From a virus (taxonomy: Duplodnaviria; Heunggongvirae; Uroviricota; Caudoviricetes), in the IMG/VR virus record IMGVR_UViG_3300029085_000005, positions 1 to 34,957 of that record: a DNA stretch of 34,957 nucleotides. One strand, written 5' to 3'. The translations under genes were made by a program, and so were the position numbers. How positions within the stretch are numbered: position 1 is the stretch's first letter; each line of letters opens with the position of its first letter. The notes beneath the pieces were generated by a model. It was given only the letters and a program-made list of their open reading frames with translations. It ran no database searches and was not told the DNA's origin. Of the stretch, positions 4,190 to 19,860 are shown piece by piece.

Positions 4190-4765
4190 TATCGCGTCCT
4201 CAACAATGAATTTTGTGATGCAGTGCCTGGTGCCTCCAGGTGACGTTAACCAGTTAACAATTAACGCCGGGTTAGTTGATGCTCGTTACGCCAGTAAAAG
4301 ACCGCCTTACTGCTTTAACTGTTCCGCGTGCGCATAGCCGCATTCACCGCATCACAAAATTCACTTTAAAAAGGGCGGCAGAGCAGTCACGGAGTAAAAC
4401 TGATACCGCCAAACGTCACCAGAAAATTGATAACAGAGGGCGTTGCAGCGGGGTTGTCACTTAAGCGTATGGTCAACCTGACAACCCGGTGTCCTCAACG
4501 GGGAAGGAATAACCCCGTCATACTTACCGCCGCGCCATTTCGCGGAGTGTCACAACCGGAAGCGCACGGTCGACGAAAATTTAACGACAGGCTATCTATG
4601 AACCAGCTACCTCGCCGTGCGCTTTCGCGTTATGGTCTGACTTTTCATGGAAATATCCTTTCAGTAAACTGTCAGTGCCGGATTCTTATCCGTGTCCGGC
4701 GCACGCACTCTACCTCACCCGTGGAGAACTCCTTAATTACCAACCTTAGCTTCGTTGGTTATCTA

Positions 4766-10051: not shown

Positions 10052-10738
10052 ATGACCCCAATAAAAATATTTATGACTATTGCTGATTTCAAACGGCCTA
10101 AATTGGAGCTCCCAAACGGGGCAAACAAACTACTACTGCACTCTTGCTGTGCTCCATGTTCCGGTGAAGTGATGGAGGCGCTTCAGGCCTCGGGAATCGA
10201 CTACACCATCTTTTTCTACAACCCGAACATTCATCCTCAGAAAGAGTATTTAATTCGTAAGGATGAAAATATTCGCTTTGCTGAACAACACGGCGTGCCG
10301 TTTATCGATGCTGATTACGACACCGACAACTGGTTTGAACGTGCCAAAGGAATGGAATGGGAGCCTGAGAGGGGGATCCGTTGTACCATGTGTTTTGACA
10401 TGCGTTTTGAGCGGACAGCGTTGTACGCTGCTGAAAATGGTTTCAGTGTGATCAGCAGTTCACTGGGCATTTCACGCTGGAAAAATATGCAGCAGGTTAA
10501 CGAGTGTGGGCGGCGAGCTGTTGCGCATTATCCGGGTATGGTGTACTGGGATTATAACTGGCGCAAGCAGGGCGGCTCGTCCCGTATGATTGAAATCAGC
10601 AAGCGCGAAAAATTCTATCAGCAGGAATATTGTGGCTGTGTGTATTCTCTGCGCGATACCAATCTACACCGCAAATCTCAGGGACGCCCTCTTATCAAAA
10701 TTGGCCAACTCCACTACGGAAAAGAAGAGAAGGAGTGA
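10052..10738 (+). CDS. QueH-like (DUF208) putative epoxyqueuosine reductase
   Basis: 228-aa ORF with [11 protein letters not shown] near the N-terminus and EYCGCVYS near the C-terminus, the Cys pattern I associate with the DUF208/QueH family; flanked by intergenic regions with promoter-like hexamers (stand-alone moron). Confidence 0.55.
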
Positions 10739-10918
10739 TTTTATGGATCACCTTTCTGATTGATTTCATATTGGCGAGGTGACGTGAGTTAAGTAGAATG
10801 GCTGCGGGTGCTTGAGGCTATCTGTCTCAGGCATGAACACTGAAAGGCAGATAGAGAAAAGCCCCAGTTAACATTTCGCGTCCTGCAAGACGCTTAACAT
10901 TAATCTGAGGCCCAATCT

Positions 10919-11131
10919 ATGTCTCACAAATGTAGGTTAGCCTCTTACGTGCCGAAAGGCAAGGGGAAGCAGGCTATGAAGCAGCAAAAGGCGATGTTAA
11001 TCGCCCTGATCGTCATCTGTTTAACCGTCATAGTGACGGCACTGGTAACGAGGAAAGACCTCTGCGAGGTACGACTCCGAACCGGCCAGACGGAGGTCGC
11101 TGTCTTCACAGCTTACGAACCTGAGGAGTAA
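10919..11131 (+). CDS. mok-like overlapping reading frame of a hok/sok-type locus
   Basis: 70-aa ORF starting 57 nt upstream of, and in frame with, the Hok-like ORF, as mok does for hok. Confidence 0.4.
   Translation: MSHKCRLASYVPKGKGKQAMKQQKAMLIALIVICLTVIVTALVTRKDLCEVRLRTGQTEVAVFTAYEPEE
10976..11131 (+). CDS. hok: Hok/Gef-family type I toxin (51 aa)
   Basis: MKQQKAMLIALIVICLTVIVTALVTRKDLCEVRLRTGQTEVAVFTAYEPEE: N-terminal TM segment, the conserved RK.LCE.R motif and VAAF/VAVF..YE tail of Hok proteins. Confidence 0.75.
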   Translation: MKQQKAMLIALIVICLTVIVTALVTRKDLCEVRLRTGQTEVAVFTAYEPEE

Positions 11132-13008: not shown

Positions 13009-13830
13009 ATGAAACTGGAAGATTTACCGAAATACTACTCCCCAAAATCCCCTGGCCTGACCGATGCATCGGCCTCAACGTCAAAAGATGCGCTGAGTAT
13101 CACTGATGTGATGGCCGCGCAGGGCATGACACAGAATCGGGCTGAGATGGGTTTTTCTGCGTTCCTGGGGAAAATGGGCATCAGTATGAATGACAGGGCG
13201 CGGGCAACAGAATTACTGGCAGATTATGCACTCAGTCGGTGCGATCGTGTGGCGGCGTTGAGAAAACTTCCGGCAGAAATAAAACCGGTAGTGATGCGCA
13301 TTATGGCTTCGTACGCTTTTGAGGATTATGCCCGCAGCGCAGCGAGTAAAAAGCAGTGCCCTTGTTGCTATGGGGAAAAATTTATTGAAAGCGTAGTTTT
13401 TACAAACAAGGTCCAGTATCCGGATGGTAAGCCGCCGGTATGGGCAAAGTGTACGAAAGGTGTGTATCCGTCTTACTGGGAAGAATGGAAAAAAGTCAGG
13501 GAGGTGGTAAAAGTTGCCTGTCCGGAGTGTGGCGGAAAGGGTGAGGTTTCCACCGCCTGTAAGGATTGCCGTGGGCGTGGTGTCGCCATTCATCGTGAAG
13601 AGTCGGTAAAACGTGGTATGCCTGTTATCAGAGACTGCCAGCGTTGTGGTGGTCGTGGCTGTGAAAGACTACCATCAACGGAGGCATTTAATGCCATACG
13701 CAAAGTGACGAGTGCTATCACGCTTGATACGTGGAAAAAATCAGTGAAACGCTTTTACGATACGTTGGTGGTTCGGTTTGACATTGAAGAGGCATGGGCG
13801 GAGCGGCAGTTAAAGAGGGTAACGCGATAG
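13009..13830 (+). CDS. Q: late-gene antiterminator Q (lambda Q family, zinc-binding)
   Basis: N-terminus MKLEDLPKYYSPKSP...DVMAAQGM parallels lambda Q MRLESVAKFHSPKSP...DVMAAMGM; multiple CxxC pairs; immediately followed by a PR'/qut-like sequence. Confidence 0.8.
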   Translation: MKLEDLPKYYSPKSPGLTDASASTSKDALSITDVMAAQGMTQNRAEMGFSAFLGKMGISMNDRARATELLADYALSRCDRVAALRKLPAEIKPVVMRIMASYAFEDYARSAASKKQCPCCYGEKFIESVVFTNKVQYPDGKPPVWAKCTKGVYPSYWEEWKKVREVVKVACPECGGKGEVSTACKDCRGRGVAIHREESVKRGMPVIRDCQRCGGRGCERLPSTEAFNAIRKVTSAITLDTWKKSVKRFYDTLVVRFDIEEAWAERQLKRVTR

Positions 13831-13911: not shown

Positions 13912-13935
13912 CCCCGCCGCCTGGCGGGTTTTTTA
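13912..13935 (+). terminator. intrinsic terminator (tR'-like)
   Basis: ccccgccgcctggcgggtttttta: GC stem cccgcc/ggcggg with a 4-nt loop and a T-tract, about 45 nt downstream of the PR' -10. Confidence 0.65.
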
Positions 13936-14404: not shown

Positions 14405-15456
14405 ATGCTTAATACTGTAAAAATATCCAGTTGTGAGTTAATCAACGCCGACTGCCTGGAATTTATCCGGTCGTTACCCGAAAATTCTGTTGACCTGATA
14501 GTCACGGACCCGCCGTACTTTAAAGTGAAGCCTGAGGGCTGGGATAACCAGTGGAAGGGCGACGATGATTACCTGAAGTGGCTGGACCAGTGTCTGGCGC
14601 AGTTCTGGCGGGTGCTGAAACCTGCCGGAAGTCTTTACCTGTTCTGTGGTCATCGCCTGGCATATCTGATATCGAAATCATGATGCGTGAACGCTTCAGT
14701 GTGCTGAACCATATTATCTGGGCGAAGCCGTCCGGACGCTGGAACGGATGCAACAAGGAAAGCCTGCGGGCGTATTTCCCCGCCACAGAGCGCATTCTGT
14801 TCGCGGAACATTATCAGGGGCCGTATCGTCCGAAAGATGCCGGGTATGCGGTGAAGGGCAGTGCACTGAAACAGCATGTGATGGCCCCGCTGATTTCTTA
14901 CTTTCGTGATGCGCGCGCGGCCCTGGGGATAACGGCAAAACAGATTGCAGATGCCACAGGAAAGAAAAACATGGTGTCGCACTGGTTCAGTGCCAGTCAG
15001 TGGCAGCTACCGAACGAAAGCGATTATCTGAAATTACAGTCGCTGTTTGCCCGGGTGGCAGAAGAGAAACATCAGCGCGGTGAACTGGAAAAGCCCCACC
15101 ACCAGCTGGTGGATACGTATACGTCACTGAACCGGCAGTATGTGGAGCTGCAGAGTGAATATAAGCATCTGCGGCGGTATTTTGGTGTGACGGCGCAGGT
15201 GCCGTACACGGATGTGTGGACACATAAACCGGTGCAGTTCTATCCCGGGAAACATCCGTGCGAAAAACCGGCAGAAATGCTGCAGCAGATAATCAGCGCA
15301 AGTAGCCGTCCTGGTGATCTGGTTGCGGATTTTTTCATGGGGTCGGGTTCAACGGTAAAAGCGGCGATGGCACTGGGGCGTCGTGCGATTGGTGTTGAGC
15401 TGGAGACCGGACGTTTTGAGCAGACAGTCAGGGAAGTTCAGGATTTAATCGTTTGA
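14405..15456 (+). pseudogene. beta-class DNA amino-methyltransferase (N6-adenine or N4-cytosine), interrupted by a +1 frameshift
   Basis: ORF 14405..14683 carries motif IV DLIVTDPPYF and LKPAGSLYLFCGH; ORF 14578..15456, in the +1 frame and overlapping by about 100 nt, carries the rest including motif I DFFMGSGST near the C-terminus. Together they make one methyltransferase of about 350 aa. Confidence 0.65.
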
Positions 15457-15505: not shown

Positions 15506-15581
15506 GGCCCTTTAGCTCAGTGGTGAGAGCGAGCGACTCATAATCGCCAGGTCGCTGGTTCAAATCCAGCAAGGGCCACCA
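15506..15581 (+). tRNA. tRNA-Ile2 (anticodon CAU, ileX/ileZ-like)
   Basis: ggccctttagctcagtggtgagagcgagcgactcataatcgcc...ggttcaaatccagcaagggccacca: perfect 7-bp acceptor stem, CAU anticodon in a 7-nt loop, T-loop TTCAAAT, CCA end. Closely resembles E. coli tRNA-Ile2 from memory; elongator Met is not formally excluded. Confidence 0.7.
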
Positions 15582-15588
15582 TCACATA

Positions 15589-15665
15589 CCGCCATTAGCT
15601 CATCAGGAAAGAGCGCCAGCCTTCGAAGCTGGTTGCGCGGAGTTCGGGTCCCCGAAGGCGGTCCA
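15589..15665 (+). tRNA. tRNA-like element, Arg(UCG)-type anticodon arm, degenerate acceptor and T arms
   Basis: Perfect anticodon stem ccagc/gctgg with loop cttcgaa (anticodon UCG), D-arm gctc...gagc and terminal CCA, but one A-A mismatch in the acceptor stem, one A-C mismatch in the T stem and a non-canonical T-loop ttcgggt. Coordinates approximate. Confidence 0.4.
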
Positions 15666-15678
15666 TTATCTGTATCCT

Positions 15679-15755
15679 GCGTTGTTAGCTCAGCCGGACA
15701 GAGCAATTGCCTTCTAAGCAATCGGTCACTGGTTCGAATCCAGTACAACGCGCCA
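15679..15755 (+). tRNA. tRNA-Arg (anticodon UCU, argU-like)
   Basis: gcgttgttagctcagccggacagagcaattgccttctaagcaatcggtcactggttcgaatccagtacaacgcgcca: perfect acceptor stem, loop cUUCUAa, canonical T-loop GTTCGAATC, CCA end. Confidence 0.75.
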
Positions 15756-15801: not shown

Positions 15802-16020
15802 CTCACAATTTAGGCGGTTGACTGTTGTCTGGTTTGCGGGGAGTTTGTTAAAAGAAACTGGCATGGTGAATCCCCCTGTGCGGAGGGGCAATCAGCGAGT
15901 AGGTATATGGGATAATCGCGGATTCAGGTGCTGGTACTGAATTCACCGGGAGGCACCCGGCACCATGCAATGGCACATAGCGCCACTCTCCAGCCCCTCT
16001 CCGGAGGGGCTTTTCTGTGC
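15802..16020 (+). repeat. structured non-coding module, copy A (promoter-like hexamers, two GC hairpins, terminal intrinsic terminator)
   Basis: Begins ctcacaatt; contains gttgactgttg, gcatggtgaatccccctgtgcggaggggc (hairpin), ctgaattcaccgggaggcacccggcaccatg (hairpin), and ends gcccctctccggaggggcttttctg. No credible ORF. Coordinates approximate. Confidence 0.5.
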
Positions 16021-16204
16021 CGGATACATCACAGTTTCTGGAACCTTAGGTACTACAGTATCAGTCAGGGTGCTATATTTTCAGATGTGATGAAAGCCTG
16101 TCAGCAGGCAGGGCGTATCGGAAATGACCCAGTAGAGAAAACGTTGACTCAGATACCGGTGCTGAGTTACCGGGAAACCGGCATCACATGACCGCTATCC
16201 TTCC

Positions 16205-16269: not shown

Positions 16270-16508
16270 CTCACAATTCAGTAAGTTGACAGTTGCCTGT
16301 CAGACTGGGCATTTGTTAAAAAAATTTCGCATGGTGAATCCCCCTGAGCGGAGGGGCGACTGGTGACGGTATAATCTCTGATTATCAAAACGAGAATGAC
16401 GCGGGTTTAGTGGCACCGGGCTGAACTCACCGGGAGGCACCCGGCACCATGTGCATGATGATACAGATACGCGGCTTTAGCCCCTCTCCGGAGGGGTTTT
16501 CTTGTGGG
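16270..16508 (+). repeat. structured non-coding module, copy B (paralogue of copy A)
   Basis: Begins ctcacaatt; TTGACA inside the palindrome tgacagttgcctgtca; gcatggtgaatccccctgagcggaggggc; consensus TATAAT (ggtgacggtataatc); ctgaactcaccgggaggcacccggcaccatg; ends gcccctctccggaggggttttcttg. Blocks collinear with copy A, variable sequence between them. Confidence 0.5.
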
Positions 16509-16731
16509 CAAAAAAAGCCCGCGCTGGGAGACGCGGGCGGCAAGGAATAAACAATAAAACGTGAAGTAATATTTCAGCTGGCGAATAATACCCCATAGTA
16601 ATCACTCTGCGCAACTGCGCGGTCTTTTTCGAATTGCGGGCTGTCGTCTCTCTTCTGCCATTGTCCTGTAACTTCCGGACTTCAGCCCGCTCCTTATTTT
16701 ACTCACAATATTATCCCGGCCGGGAGGATTC

Positions 16732-16959: not shown

Positions 16960-17227
16960 AAGACGGTCTGGCAGTGGGACTAAATGCACTGACGCTGACG
17001 GATATTACCAAAAATGCAACGTATGGCGTTGAGATAGAAAGTCTGGTGCTGGAGATAAATGCACCGGCATCATCATAAAAAGTGAGCCAGTCAAATGGAA
17101 GGTATCGTTAAACTCACCGGTAGTGTCAGTGGGTCGTCTGAGACGCCTGCATGAGTTATCAGAGCCATCAGTACTTAACTGGTGGCTTTTTTATTGTTGT
17201 CAGCTTCCGGATAACGGGAGACGGGGT

Positions 17228-17443
17228 ATGTACCAGATGGAAAAAATCACAACAGGTGTGTCATACACCACGTCAGCGGTGGGAACGGGCTACTGGTTCC
17301 TGCAGTTGCTGGACAGGGTTTCCCCGTCTCAGTGGGCGGCAATAGGCGTGCTGGGGAGTCTGCTGTTTGGGCTGCTGACATATCTGACTAACCTGTATTT
17401 CAAAATCAAAGAGGACCGGCGTAAGGCGGCGCGGGGAGAGTAA
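17228..17443 (+). CDS. S: class II holin, S21-like pinholin with dual-start motif
   Basis: Internal Met of ORF 17123..17443 gives [71 protein letters not shown] (71 aa, two TM segments, Met1/Met4 dual start, charged C-terminus), closely resembling phage 21 S21 from memory. Confidence 0.8.
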
Positions 17444-17447
17444 AGTG

Positions 17448-18338
17448 ATGAATAAAAAATATGAACTGGTTGTTAAGGGGATAAATAATTACGGGGATAA
17501 GGTTACTGTTACTGTGAAGCCGGAAGGTGACGGGCAAGCGTCGCTGTTGTTGCCAGATGTGGCGATTAGTCTTGACCGTACTGAAGGTGCCACGCTGGAG
17601 TTTTACGAAGCTGAGGCGAAAAAGCAGGCGAAGCAGTTTTTCATGGATGTTGCTGCCGGGTTATGTGAAGGGGATGGTCCGTTGCCGGAAAAGCGCCCCG
17701 TAATTTTAGAGGCGCAGGATGTGTTGATAACCTACAAAGGAAAGCTACCGGGAAGAATTACTTGTTCTCTGAAGATGCCGCCGTCAACACTGCGGTCAGA
17801 AAAAGATGATGTTGAATCACGTATTGAAAAACTGGAGAGCTACGTCGTTGAGCTGAATAAGAAATGGTCGATATTGGTGCCTTCTGGCGATGAAAAGCAG
17901 TTTGCTGCGTTTGACGATTATTGTCGGAAAGTGATGAGCAGAAATCTCGCAGAGTGTTTCAGTATTCATAATGATAATTTCAGTGACCCGGAATGGGAGT
18001 GTAACCGGCCATCCTTTGTTGTATCCGGTGATGCTGGGAAAATAACCATCTCAGAAAATGGGAAAGTAACACCTCCATCGCACCAGCACAGTGAGGAGCT
18101 CATTGAATTTGCCATTGATTACCTGAAGAACAATAAAAAGCAGGGGCTGATGAAGCGCGTTGGCCGTTGCATGGGATATCTGCAGGTAGCTGCTGAGATT
18201 GAAGCGCTGGCCAGTGGTGCTGATAAGGATGCAATTGTGCGGGAGGCTTTTCTTCGTGATTTTAATACTCCACCCTTTAAAAAAGTGCCGGCTTACTGGC
18301 TTCATCCGGGGCTGACTTATCTTAAAGTGCGTATTTAG
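17448..18338 (+). CDS. hypothetical 296-aa soluble protein inserted between holin and endolysin (unknown function)
   Basis: ORF 17445..18338 (GTG at 17445, ATG at 17448) starts a few nt after the holin stop and ends about 35 nt before the endolysin start. No TM segment, signal peptide or motif recognised; visibly AT-richer than the flanking genes. Confidence 0.55.
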   Translation: MNKKYELVVKGINNYGDKVTVTVKPEGDGQASLLLPDVAISLDRTEGATLEFYEAEAKKQAKQFFMDVAAGLCEGDGPLPEKRPVILEAQDVLITYKGKLPGRITCSLKMPPSTLRSEKDDVESRIEKLESYVVELNKKWSILVPSGDEKQFAAFDDYCRKVMSRNLAECFSIHNDNFSDPEWECNRPSFVVSGDAGKITISENGKVTPPSHQHSEELIEFAIDYLKNNKKQGLMKRVGRCMGYLQVAAEIEALASGADKDAIVREAFLRDFNTPPFKKVPAYWLHPGLTYLKVRI

Positions 18339-18374
18339 TGGGCCAGGGACAGCGGCTGAATATTTAATATATCC

Positions 18375-18908
18375 ATGAACACCAAAATCAAATACGGCCT
18401 GTCGGCTGCCGTTCTGGCGCTGATTGCCGCTGGTGCGCCTGCGCCTGACATTCTCGACCAGTTTCTGGATGAAAAGGAAGGCAACCACACCACAGCATAC
18501 CGTGATGGTGCGGGTATCTGGACCATCTGCCGAGGTGCCATCATGGTGGATGGTAAGCCTGTGATTCCTGGCATGAAGCTGTCGAAGGAAAAATGCGACT
18601 GGGTTAACACTATCGAACGGGATAAGGCGCTGGCGTGGGTGGAGAAAAACATCAGAGTGCCACTGACCGAACCCCAGAAAGCGGGGATCGCGTCATTCTG
18701 TCCGTACAACATTGGTCCCGGTAAGTGTTTCCCGTCGACGTTTTACAGACGAATTAATGCTGGTGATCGAAAAGGTGCCTGCGAAGCGATTCGCTGGTGG
18801 ATTAAGGACGGTGGCAGAGACTGCCGTATTCGTTCAAACAACTGTTACGGTCAAGTATCCCGTCGTGACCAGGAGAGCGCGCTGGCGTGCTGGGGTATCG
18901 ACAGATAA
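18375..18908 (+). CDS. R: SAR endolysin (R21-like, T4-lysozyme fold, GH24)
   Basis: N-terminal signal-anchor-release segment (LSAAVLALIAAGA) and catalytic E-8aa-D-5aa-T motif in LDEKEGNHTTAYRDGAGIWTICRG. Confidence 0.85.
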   Translation: MNTKIKYGLSAAVLALIAAGAPAPDILDQFLDEKEGNHTTAYRDGAGIWTICRGAIMVDGKPVIPGMKLSKEKCDWVNTIERDKALAWVEKNIRVPLTEPQKAGIASFCPYNIGPGKCFPSTFYRRINAGDRKGACEAIRWWIKDGGRDCRIRSNNCYGQVSRRDQESALACWGIDR

Positions 18909-19064
18909 GCAGAATATTTTGCTGAAAAATGAGGAATGGCCACGCGGGCGGATAACACGAAATCCTGCGAACTGGCGAAACGTAAGTGAATAAAAGTAAA
19001 AACCCCGTTTGTTGGCACCAAGCGAGGTTTTGTGTTTCTGACCTTGAGTAAGGCAAGGGAGAAC

Positions 19065-19247
19065 ATGGCGAAGTATAAACGAATTCTGTTGAGGTTGACT
19101 ATGAAAAATGGCCTTGAACTGAAAGCGCCTGTAACTGATGACATCAGCAGAGCACTGGCTTTTGCCATTAAGTGGGTGGCGGTCGGTGTTGCTGTGTCCC
19201 CGATGCTGTATGGGCTGGCAAAACTGGTCATTGCGTTGAAATCGTGA
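19065..19247 (+). CDS. small membrane protein (about 60 aa) between endolysin and Rz
   Basis: Internal ATG of ORF 19032..19247 preceded by AAGGGAGA; [60 protein letters not shown] with one C-terminal TM segment. Confidence 0.4.
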
Positions 19248-19261
19248 AGGGAGGATTAAGC

Positions 19262-19393
19262 ATGTCAGACAAACTCATAACGCTGGCGAAGATCCTCTGT
19301 GTAATTGTCGGCATTTCATTTTCACTAATGCTGGTTGCTCTTTTTCTTTCCATGGCCTGGATGATGTTGTCTTCGTCGGGGTTGCTGGGGTGA
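19262..19393 (+). CDS. small hydrophobic peptide (about 43 aa) between endolysin and Rz
   Basis: Internal ATG of ORF 19172..19393 preceded by GGGAGGA; [43 protein letters not shown], a single TM segment. Confidence 0.4.
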
Positions 19394-19404
19394 ACATAAA
19401 CCGA

Positions 19405-19860
19405 ATGCTTTCCGCGTTTATCGTTATTCTGCTGGTGGCCTGTGGTGCGCTGTGGATGGCAACAGACCATTACCGTGATAACGCGATTACCTACAAAGCG
19501 CAGCGCGATAACAAAGCCAGTGAACTGAAGCTGGCGAACGCAACCATTACTGATATGCAGGTGCGCCAGCGCGATGTTGCTGCACTCGATGAAAAATACT
19601 CAAGGGAGTTAGCTGATGCGAAAGCTGAAAATGATGCTCTGCGTGATGATATTGCCGCTGGTCGTCGTCGGTTGCGCATCAGAGCAGTCTGTCCAGCCGT
19701 GCGTGAAGCCACCGGCACCACCGGCGTGGATGATGCAGCCCGCCCCGGACTTACTGACGCCGCTCAACGGGATTATTTCACCCTCAGAGAGCGAATCGCA
19801 ACCAGCGACAGAATGATTCGGGGATTGCAGGAATATATCCGCACCCAGTGCATTAAGTAG
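19405..19860 (+). CDS. Rz: Rz i-spanin
   Basis: ORF 19390..19860 from its internal ATG: N-terminal TM anchor ([17 protein letters not shown]) followed by a coiled-coil-type periplasmic domain; the embedded +1 lipoprotein ORF confirms the Rz/Rz1 arrangement. Confidence 0.8.
19616..19816 (+). CDS. Rz1: Rz1 o-spanin lipoprotein (embedded in Rz, +1 frame)
   Basis: Signal peptide with lipobox ([14 protein letters not shown]), Pro-rich mature region; the true start may be one of the downstream Met codons. Confidence 0.7.

Follow-up and report, generated by a model that had tools for sequence, protein, structure and literature searches.

What does a phage gain from a 296-codon gene placed in the middle of its lysis cassette? 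The question is raised by a sequence of 34,957 nucleotides (nt) assigned to the Caudoviricetes (IMG/VR record IMGVR_UViG_3300029085_000005, positions 1 to 34,957; this whole stretch is referred to as the window). There, an open reading frame (ORF) of 296 amino acids (aa) on the plus strand (17448..18338, stop codon included, with ATG at 17448) lies between the genes for a pinholin-like holin and for a lysozyme. It had been singled out from the sequence alone as an unexplained ORF. We find that it is very probably a long-form member of the YdfR family, and an accessory gene that stands outside the core lysis machinery of holin, endolysin and spanin. As for what its product does, we favour, tentatively, a late-expressed cytoplasmic accessory protein whose target would be RNase E or RNA of the host, not the lysis process.

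Family Membership and Annotation

Residues 1-100 of the protein match the Pfam family PF07041 (DUF1327) over profile positions 1-88 of 93 (E=3.9e-40; 136.4 bits, where the cutoff is 25), which overturns the initial impression that no motif could be assigned to it. PHROG 1085, a family without annotated function, is matched end to end (residues 1-296 on positions 1-296 of 296, E=9.4e-188). Together, the two matches rule out an orphan or novel gene. This very protein is found in a cluster of 962 sequences built at 90% identity, for which the NCBI names are "YdfR family protein" or else "DUF1327 domain-containing protein". Some part of the gene is present in 3084 of the 5426 complete E. coli genomes (57%), at up to 8 places per genome; the N-terminal head described below occurs in 3044 (56%) and the C-terminal tail in 777 (14%) of these 5426, and alleles 99.9% identical to the ORF at the nucleotide level are carried by many complete E. 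coli genomes. Judging from these matches, the ORF is a real, full-length member of the very common and uncharacterised YdfR (DUF1327) prophage family. It is among the commonest uncharacterised E. coli prophage genes, inside one of the best-studied phage gene cassettes.

As an entity, the gene is already known. It lies between a class II holin and a lysozyme, as K-12 ydfR does, and a YdfR gene at this position will be no surprise to a specialist. The short form of the family is a single domain of ~100-115 aa; our protein has 296 aa, and the Pfam domain covers its first third only. No Pfam family matches residues 101-296, and all matching PHROGs are of "unknown function". Comparison of the protein with NCBIfam models gave nothing significant, and neither did PADLOC-DB, where the best hit was PbeC (E=0.018, 11.3 bits) over the coiled-coil segment 119-182. 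No PHROG of the category "lysis" and no Pfam lysis family was matched at E<=0.1, and sequence profiles compared with PDB chains gave nothing below E=0.02, the hits at that level being coiled-coil noise. With these results, and with no fold match for the structural models, the suggestion that the gene has an undescribed function stands. Among the outcomes that the original prediction had counted against itself was a match to a known family that regularly sits here and assists lysis in some ordinary way: the family and its routine position were found, and a lysis-accessory role was not, no function being assigned to the family.

In the literature searched, we found no paper on the long form, and DUF1327 is mentioned once, in passing. 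Equally absent there were the three-module reading of the protein, the conserved and unannotated tail common to E. coli and Salmonella, and the delimited cargo slot, all described below. Annotation of the long form is uneven. In the syntenic prophage of E. coli strain Eco889 (NZ_CP015159.1, L004:20001-20891), the annotation pipeline PGAP gives a truncated pseudogene, "YdfR family protein, incomplete", which covers the head only. This call is an artefact: the 99.9%-identical ORF is intact there and differs by the single substitution F268L. The tail region bears no annotated feature of any kind in nine of 12 sampled complete RefSeq genomes.

A Cargo Slot Between Holin and Lysozyme

The ORF had been regarded as an unusual insertion on the grounds that holin and endolysin genes are normally adjacent. 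This did not hold up. In 80 IMG/VR loci retrieved with the ORF as a query, the gene always follows a P21-type holin gene by 4-7 nt and precedes the lysozyme gene. A census that took the holin, and not the ORF, as its seed yielded 80 loci with a holin at least 97% identical, in 71 of which a lysozyme gene is found downstream. The slot between the two genes is empty in 12 of the 71, with holin and lysozyme 5-8 nt apart. It contains the head only in 29 loci, head plus tail in 14, linker-tail or tail without head in 10, head-linker in four and an alternative tail in two. Adjacency of holin and endolysin is thus found in only 12 of 71 loci with the same holin, and an occupied slot is the rule. The empty slots also mean that the gene is dispensable for lysis.

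The limits of the slot were mapped by blastn of the DNA against nine loci of different architecture. On the left, homology runs through the holin gene and the first five bases of the ORF (ATGAA), giving a boundary at 17452; on the right, homology to every other arrangement resumes at 18369..18374 (plus strand), 6 nt before the lysozyme ATG. Between 17452 and 18369 modules are swapped, deleted or absent. In particular, phage YYZ-2008 has a 114-aa gene and lacks 17784-18368, one locus carries a 185-aa linker-plus-tail gene directly behind the holin, another carries a 213-aa linker-tail gene followed by a DUF1327 fragment, and Stx1a phages have an unrelated alternative tail. As far as these alignments tell, the junction of holin and endolysin is a delimited slot for cargo, and its recombination boundaries are fixed.

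The ORF had been judged by eye to be AT-richer than its neighbours, and computation bears this out, with G+C contents (GC) and third-position GC of 0.464 and 0.465 for the ORF, 0.542 and 0.681 for the holin gene, and 0.539 and 0.590 for the lysozyme gene. Lambdoid morons and lysis-cassette cargo, e.g., bor and the ant, KilA-N and methylase genes between R and Rz, are likewise optional, compositionally deviant and located at late-operon junctions. The ORF resembles them both in composition, at 0.464 against 0.54 in the flanks, and in occupying a polymorphic slot. It differs from classical morons, which have a promoter and a terminator of their own and are expressed in the lysogen, in that a consensus scan finds neither element and expression is expected only together with the lysis genes.

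Modular Architecture

The protein can be divided into three modules, defined from alignments of differing architectures and from two AlphaFold2 (AF2) runs. The AF2 models have low overall confidence (predicted local distance difference test, pLDDT, of 53 and 56) and the same topology in both runs. The head (aa 1-113; 17448..17786, plus strand) is the DUF1327 part and comprises a beta-beta-beta-alpha core, with three strands and a long helix over aa 6-69, and a low-confidence extension; the AF2 pLDDT is 60-87 over aa 1-70. The linker (aa 114-176; 17787..17975, plus strand) contains leucine-zipper-like heptads (L115, V122, L129, L136, L143), of which L136 is invariant (alignment A2), and a second helix. 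It is the most AT-rich part of the ORF (GC 0.413), has an isoelectric point (pI) of 5.07, and is the site of 28-36-residue indels and of outright replacements between alleles. The heptad pattern suggests that the linker probably multimerises the protein.

The tail (aa 177-296; 17976..18335, plus strand) has no Pfam family and consists of three short strands and four helices, with an AF2 pLDDT of 60-81 in its core. Its motifs are P-x3-H214, G239-R-x-M-G-x-L-Q-x-A-A-E-I-E and D-F-x-x-P-P-F-K278, and at the C-terminus W284-x-x-P-G-x-x-Y-L-K-x-R-I. The tail also exists as a stand-alone gene. Both head and tail show a beta-beta-beta-alpha arrangement in the AF2 models, and we considered whether the tail could be a diverged duplicate of the head; hhalign finds nothing of the kind. 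A polymorphic-effector design was sought in the alternative C-terminal tails of the 305-aa and 263-aa forms, and no recognisable domains were found in them.

As originally described, the protein appears soluble: its maximum Kyte-Doolittle mean over 19 residues is 0.75, and no transmembrane segment or signal peptide was found by hydropathy. The pI of the whole protein is 5.95.

Relatives in Salmonella

An exhaustive phmmer search with residues 115-296 against 1.84 billion cluster representatives retrieved 24 relatives. A scan of 185,579 species genomes gave three loci, all from Escherichia or Shigella; relatives from Salmonella were found only in the larger protein collection. These distant relatives are "hypothetical proteins" of 225-338 aa from Salmonella enterica prophages (e.g., P0153, P0180, and P0187), ~28-30% identical to the ORF product overall and 40-47% identical over the last ~115 residues. 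They keep the plan of a head-like part, a coiled coil and a tail, their heads being faintly DUF1327-like and below the Pfam threshold (best E=0.004).

Sixty E. coli and Salmonella sequences share ten invariant positions in the tail: H214, L226, G239, G243, L245, Q246, A249, I251, P276, and K278. In the same 60 sequences, ~25 further positions are at least 90% conserved, and 16 tail positions are invariant in a 14-sequence alignment. The positions invariant across both genera indicate that the tail is a real, constrained domain. These 120 residues form a conserved domain of E. coli and Salmonella phages that is often unannotated or placed in genes that RefSeq calls pseudogenes.

In seven Salmonella contexts, the gene is located directly upstream of the holin, in the cargo region between Q and the holin, and not between holin and endolysin. 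Its neighbours in this region are HicAB, ParE or a pertussis-like toxin gene, and three holin families accompany it (PF04971, PF16080, and PF05106). The common denominator of the gene is the promoter-proximal end of the late operon beside a holin, not a particular holin or endolysin.

The pertussis-like gene, found in Salmonella enterica subsp. diarizonae (L095:1710-2519, plus strand), encodes an ADP-ribosyltransferase subunit by a weak PF02917 match and lies ~1 kb upstream of the ORF homolog. Stx2 phage 86 and Salmonella prophages have, directly behind the long YdfR gene, small convergent ORFs on the minus strand (91-105 aa). Those at L003:3317-3631, L183:4309-4626, and L185:4333-4608 (all minus strand) are 44-51% mutually identical and have no Pfam family. 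A conserved convergent partner gene was considered and rejected, as the window, with only a 36-nt spacer at this point, has no such ORF and other loci carry unrelated small ORFs.

Position in the Late Operon

The holin gene upstream of the ORF (17228..17443, plus strand) encodes a P21-type class II holin, pinholin-like, of 71 aa with a dual start MYQM (Pfam PF04971, E=7.2e-33, and PHROG holin families). Its stop codon TAA occupies 17441-17443, leaving a 4-nt gap to the ATG of the ORF; the open frame itself extends upstream to a GTG (17445..18338, plus strand) and encloses the ATG-started 296-aa ORF. A Shine-Dalgarno sequence GGAG (17435-17438, plus strand) is located inside the final holin codons, 9 nt before the ATG, and may allow translational coupling of the holin and the ORF. 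At the other end, the ORF stops at 18338 and the lysozyme ATG is at 18375, so that the original description of an ORF nearly abutting the holin stop and ending ~35 nt before the endolysin is correct, the spacer being 36 nt. The lysozyme (18375..18908, plus strand; 177 aa, Pfam PF00959, E=5.6e-23) has an N-terminus resembling that of signal-anchor-release (SAR) proteins, YGLSAAVLALIAAGAPAP, in which a Gly/Ala-rich, weakly hydrophobic stretch is followed by an E35-x8-D44-x5-T50 triad. These features are consistent with a SAR endolysin.

The Q antiterminator gene is found at 13009-13830 (PF03589). Between it and the holin gene, a consensus scan finds a chain of terminator-like hairpins, the last of which stands directly upstream of the holin gene (17161..17189, plus strand) and has a 12-bp stem followed by a T-run, TTTATTGTTG. 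Within and beyond the holin gene, the same scan, which was the only method applied, revealed no sigma-70-like promoter on the plus strand; nor did it show a T-run terminator behind the ORF, or any promoter or terminator between holin, ORF and lysozyme. The hairpins and the lack of a local promoter point to Q-dependent read-through and to co-transcription with the lysis genes, in support of what had been proposed initially. It is a reasonable inference that the ORF is made late, from a Q-dependent transcript shared with the holin. On the opposite strand, an ORF of 145 aa (18051-18488, minus strand) overlaps the tail, the spacer and the start of the lysozyme gene and spans the recombination boundary. 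It is open solely in near-identical alleles, hence uninformative, and is probably no gene.

This arrangement invites the explanation that the protein is a cytoplasmic modifier of lysis timing, which would bind the basic C-terminal tail of the class II holin or alter holin accumulation and thus tune the triggering of the pinholin. A lysis-timing modifier had been suggested at the outset, as had an exclusion or abortive-infection factor; both are possible but unsupported. T4 RIII is a cytoplasmic antiholin partner, and the logic would be analogous. The gene always adjoins the holin, 4-7 nt downstream in E. coli and just upstream in the seven Salmonella contexts, its product is probably made simultaneously with the holin and possibly in a coupled ratio, and the linker is acidic (pI 5.07) and the holin tail basic. 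However, loci with the same holin have the slot empty (12 of 71) or filled with only a head or only a tail, and three different holin families accompany the gene in Salmonella. Moreover, the protein has no homology to families of lysis regulators (S107/S21-71, T4 RI and RIII, P1 LydB) and no membrane or periplasmic domain, and the weak selective constraint described below would be unexpected in a determinant of timing. The well-studied S/R system of phage 21 is not known to need such a factor. We therefore regard a role in lysis timing as unlikely.

The late-promoter-proximal position and the release of the cell contents at lysis could also suit cargo directed at eukaryotes, by analogy with Shiga toxin, and one Salmonella homolog lies near the pertussis-like toxin gene. 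Still, the protein lacks a signal peptide and any receptor-binding or toxin domain, and it resembles no effector family, leaving the earlier idea of a host-directed effector without support, and the gene is present in more than half of E. coli genomes, K-12 and commensals included. Such a role would be hardly credible.

Selection on the Gene

Rates of nonsynonymous and synonymous substitution (dN/dS) were calculated by the Nei-Gojobori method for 35 unique alleles. The head gives a ratio of 0.45 and the tail one of 0.39; in the linker the values are near 1, reflecting non-homologous replacements. At the same loci, dN/dS is 0.11 for the holin and 0.06 for the lysozyme. In a closely related clade of 296-aa proteins (24 loci), the corresponding ratio within the clade (pN/pS) is 0.73 on 34 changes, compared to 0.11 for both neighbours. 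Of the 72 loci in which the state of the frame could be judged, 69 have it intact, at up to ~40% protein divergence. Purifying selection across homologs, whose absence would have spoken against the original prediction, is thus present, and weak: the broad set gives 0.39-0.45, and the close clade a near-neutral 0.73. Taken together, these comparisons suggest that the gene is functional, with a constraint much weaker or more episodic than that on the companion lysis genes.

The low constraint could be read in two other ways. One is that the ORF is functionless mosaic filler, a decaying remnant in a recombination-prone junction of the lysis cassette. The near-neutral pN/pS (0.73, where holin and lysozyme of those 24 loci have 0.11) agrees with this, as do the frequent truncated, head-only and tail-only versions and empty slots, and PGAP often labels the gene a pseudogene. 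Against it stand the frame kept open in 69 of 72 loci at up to ~40% protein divergence, the broad dN/dS of 0.39-0.45, which is below 1, and the ten tail residues that are invariant between E. coli and Salmonella proteins only ~28-30% identical; the pseudogene label is artefactual, as the intact Eco889 ORF demonstrates. We give this explanation little credence.

The other is that the ORF is a conflict gene, whose modules were shaped by an arms race: either an anti-defence gene acting on late-triggered immunity of the host or of a rival prophage, or a gene for defence or exclusion. The dN/dS values raised relative to the neighbours (0.39-0.73 against 0.06-0.11), the extensive shuffling of modules inside fixed boundaries, the presence/absence polymorphism, the deviant GC and the up to 8 copies per genome would all fit, and in Salmonella the gene shares its cargo region with HicAB, ParE and the pertussis-like toxin gene. 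However, PADLOC gave no significant match, no enzymatic motif was recognised, and a gene without its own promoter is expected to be silent in the lysogen, contrary to classical prophage defence or exclusion. Most known anti-defence genes belong to the early class, which also counts against this reading. A conflict gene thus seems rather improbable.

A Possible Link to RNase E

The favoured reading, that of a late accessory protein acting on RNase E or RNA, was absent from the original prediction and has the sole experimental lead (PMC13232886). The lead comes from E. coli K-12 YdfR (b1555, Qin prophage), which belongs to the same family and occupies the same slot (essQ-ydfR-rrrQ) as the ORF. 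K-12 YdfR has 103 aa and is devoid of the zipper linker and the conserved tail, both of which our protein has; the two align solely over aa 1-74, with 47% identity. In P0022, another allele of the long form (296 aa, 129 contigs), the same linker and tail as in the window protein are joined to a head that shares 81% identity with K-12 YdfR aa 1-74. This fusion, together with the Salmonella architecture, suggests that the long form is the complete gene and K-12 YdfR a head-only derivative. In other words, the K-12 protein studied as a partner of RNase E is just the head of a longer, three-module protein.

A two-hybrid screen that used RNase G as bait picked up residues 1-72 of K-12 YdfR, and these bind the N-terminal half of RNase E better (Gopel et al., RNA Biol 2026, PMC13232886). 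Full-length K-12 YdfR gives a two-hybrid signal with Rne 1-597, Rne 1-598 co-elutes from lysate with Strep-YdfR, and DNase-resistant nucleic acid co-purifies with Strep-YdfR (PMC13232886). Overproduction of K-12 YdfR altered few transcripts and did not stop growth (PMC13232886). By extension, the head of the window protein may bind RNase E or RNA; these measurements do not bear on residues 114-296 of the ORF. Among phage proteins, T4 Srd is the one known to bind the N-terminal half of RNase E, and it stimulates the decay of host mRNA (Qi et al. 2015, cited in PMC13232886). RapZ belongs to the same group of binders. The likeness to Srd is a functional analogy at most, that of a phage protein contacting RNase E in its catalytic half: Srd is encoded early by a virulent phage, and the ORF is a late gene of temperate phages.

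The favoured reading would then run as follows. The holin and the long YdfR protein would be co-made from the Q-dependent late transcript, possibly by translational coupling. The DUF1327 head would anchor the protein to RNase E of the host or to RNA, the zipper linker would multimerise it, and the tail would supply an activity or bind a second partner. In this way, the phage would change RNA decay in the host during the final stage of lytic growth, e.g., by protecting its long late transcript or by redirecting decay. That K-12 YdfR lacks the tail may account for its weak overproduction phenotype, and the tail may have an effector role. Should the protein indeed influence RNA decay or the timing of lysis, this would bear on the induction and product release of Stx and other lambdoid prophages.

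Several results weigh against this reading. The contact of YdfR with RNase E was observed by two-hybrid assay and by co-purification from lysate without nuclease treatment, and may be bridged by RNA (PMC13232886). The head used there belongs to another prophage and is 47% identical, and the contact may not be conserved in the window protein, whose head has a pI of 5.5, such acidity being atypical of RNA-binding domains. No sequence relationship to T4 Srd was detected (hhalign, alignment A4: probability 0.15%, E=0.4), and no fold match was found for the AF2 models, whose pLDDT is low (53-56). Head-only and tail-only genes are both common, so that the pairing of a targeting head with an effector tail is not obligatory. 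Finally, the constraint on the gene is far weaker than on the neighbouring lysis genes, and a pN/pS of 0.73 on 34 changes is inseparable from neutrality.

A bolder and doubtful extension is that long YdfR proteins represent an unrecognised class of phage late-gene adaptors, with a head docking on RNase E or RNA, a zipper matching the RNase E tetramer, and a tail of new fold that would redirect degradation before lysis. K-12 YdfR would then be a severed docking module, hence near-inert on overproduction. As a variant, the tail may be a new cytoplasmic regulator of class II holins.

Other Features of the Window

Downstream of the lysozyme gene, the Rz gene is found at 19390-19860 (PF03245), after a 480-nt interval (18909-19389, plus strand). 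The interval contains two small overlapping ORFs with hydrophobic stretches and no Pfam family, at 19032-19247 (71 aa) and 19172-19393 (73 aa). In other phages, the lysozyme-Rz junction carries ant, KilA-N or methylase cargo. In the window, an N6/N4 DNA methyltransferase ORF (14578-15456, plus strand; PF01555, E=1e-28) is located just after Q and a terminator-like hairpin (13913-13928). Related Salmonella and E. coli loci have their methylase, which is of the same family, at the lysozyme-Rz junction instead.

Also downstream of Q, there are three tRNA genes (15506-15755, plus strand) with the anticodon CAT, Arg-TCG, and Arg-TCT. ARAGORN assigns the CAT tRNA to Met, and the annotation of the syntenic Eco889 prophage has tRNA-Ile. 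Two copies of the STnc100 small RNA (Rfam, 136 and 161 bits; 15832-16022 and 16300-16509, plus strand) lie beyond the tRNA cluster and ahead of the DUF1737 and holin genes, each ending in a terminator-like hairpin (15992-16011 and 16479-16498, respectively).

A QueH-like epoxyqueuosine reductase is encoded at 10052-10738 (plus strand; PF02677, E=1e-65). Directly downstream of it lies a sok antitoxin RNA (10806-10981, plus strand; Rfam, 120 bits), which suggests a hok/sok module. In the early region, the window carries the antisense small RNA DicF (4373-4424, minus strand; Rfam, 76.7 bits), and the syntenic Eco889 prophage has dicB, ydfC, and ydfB at this place, which points to an immunity region similar to those of Qin and Rac.

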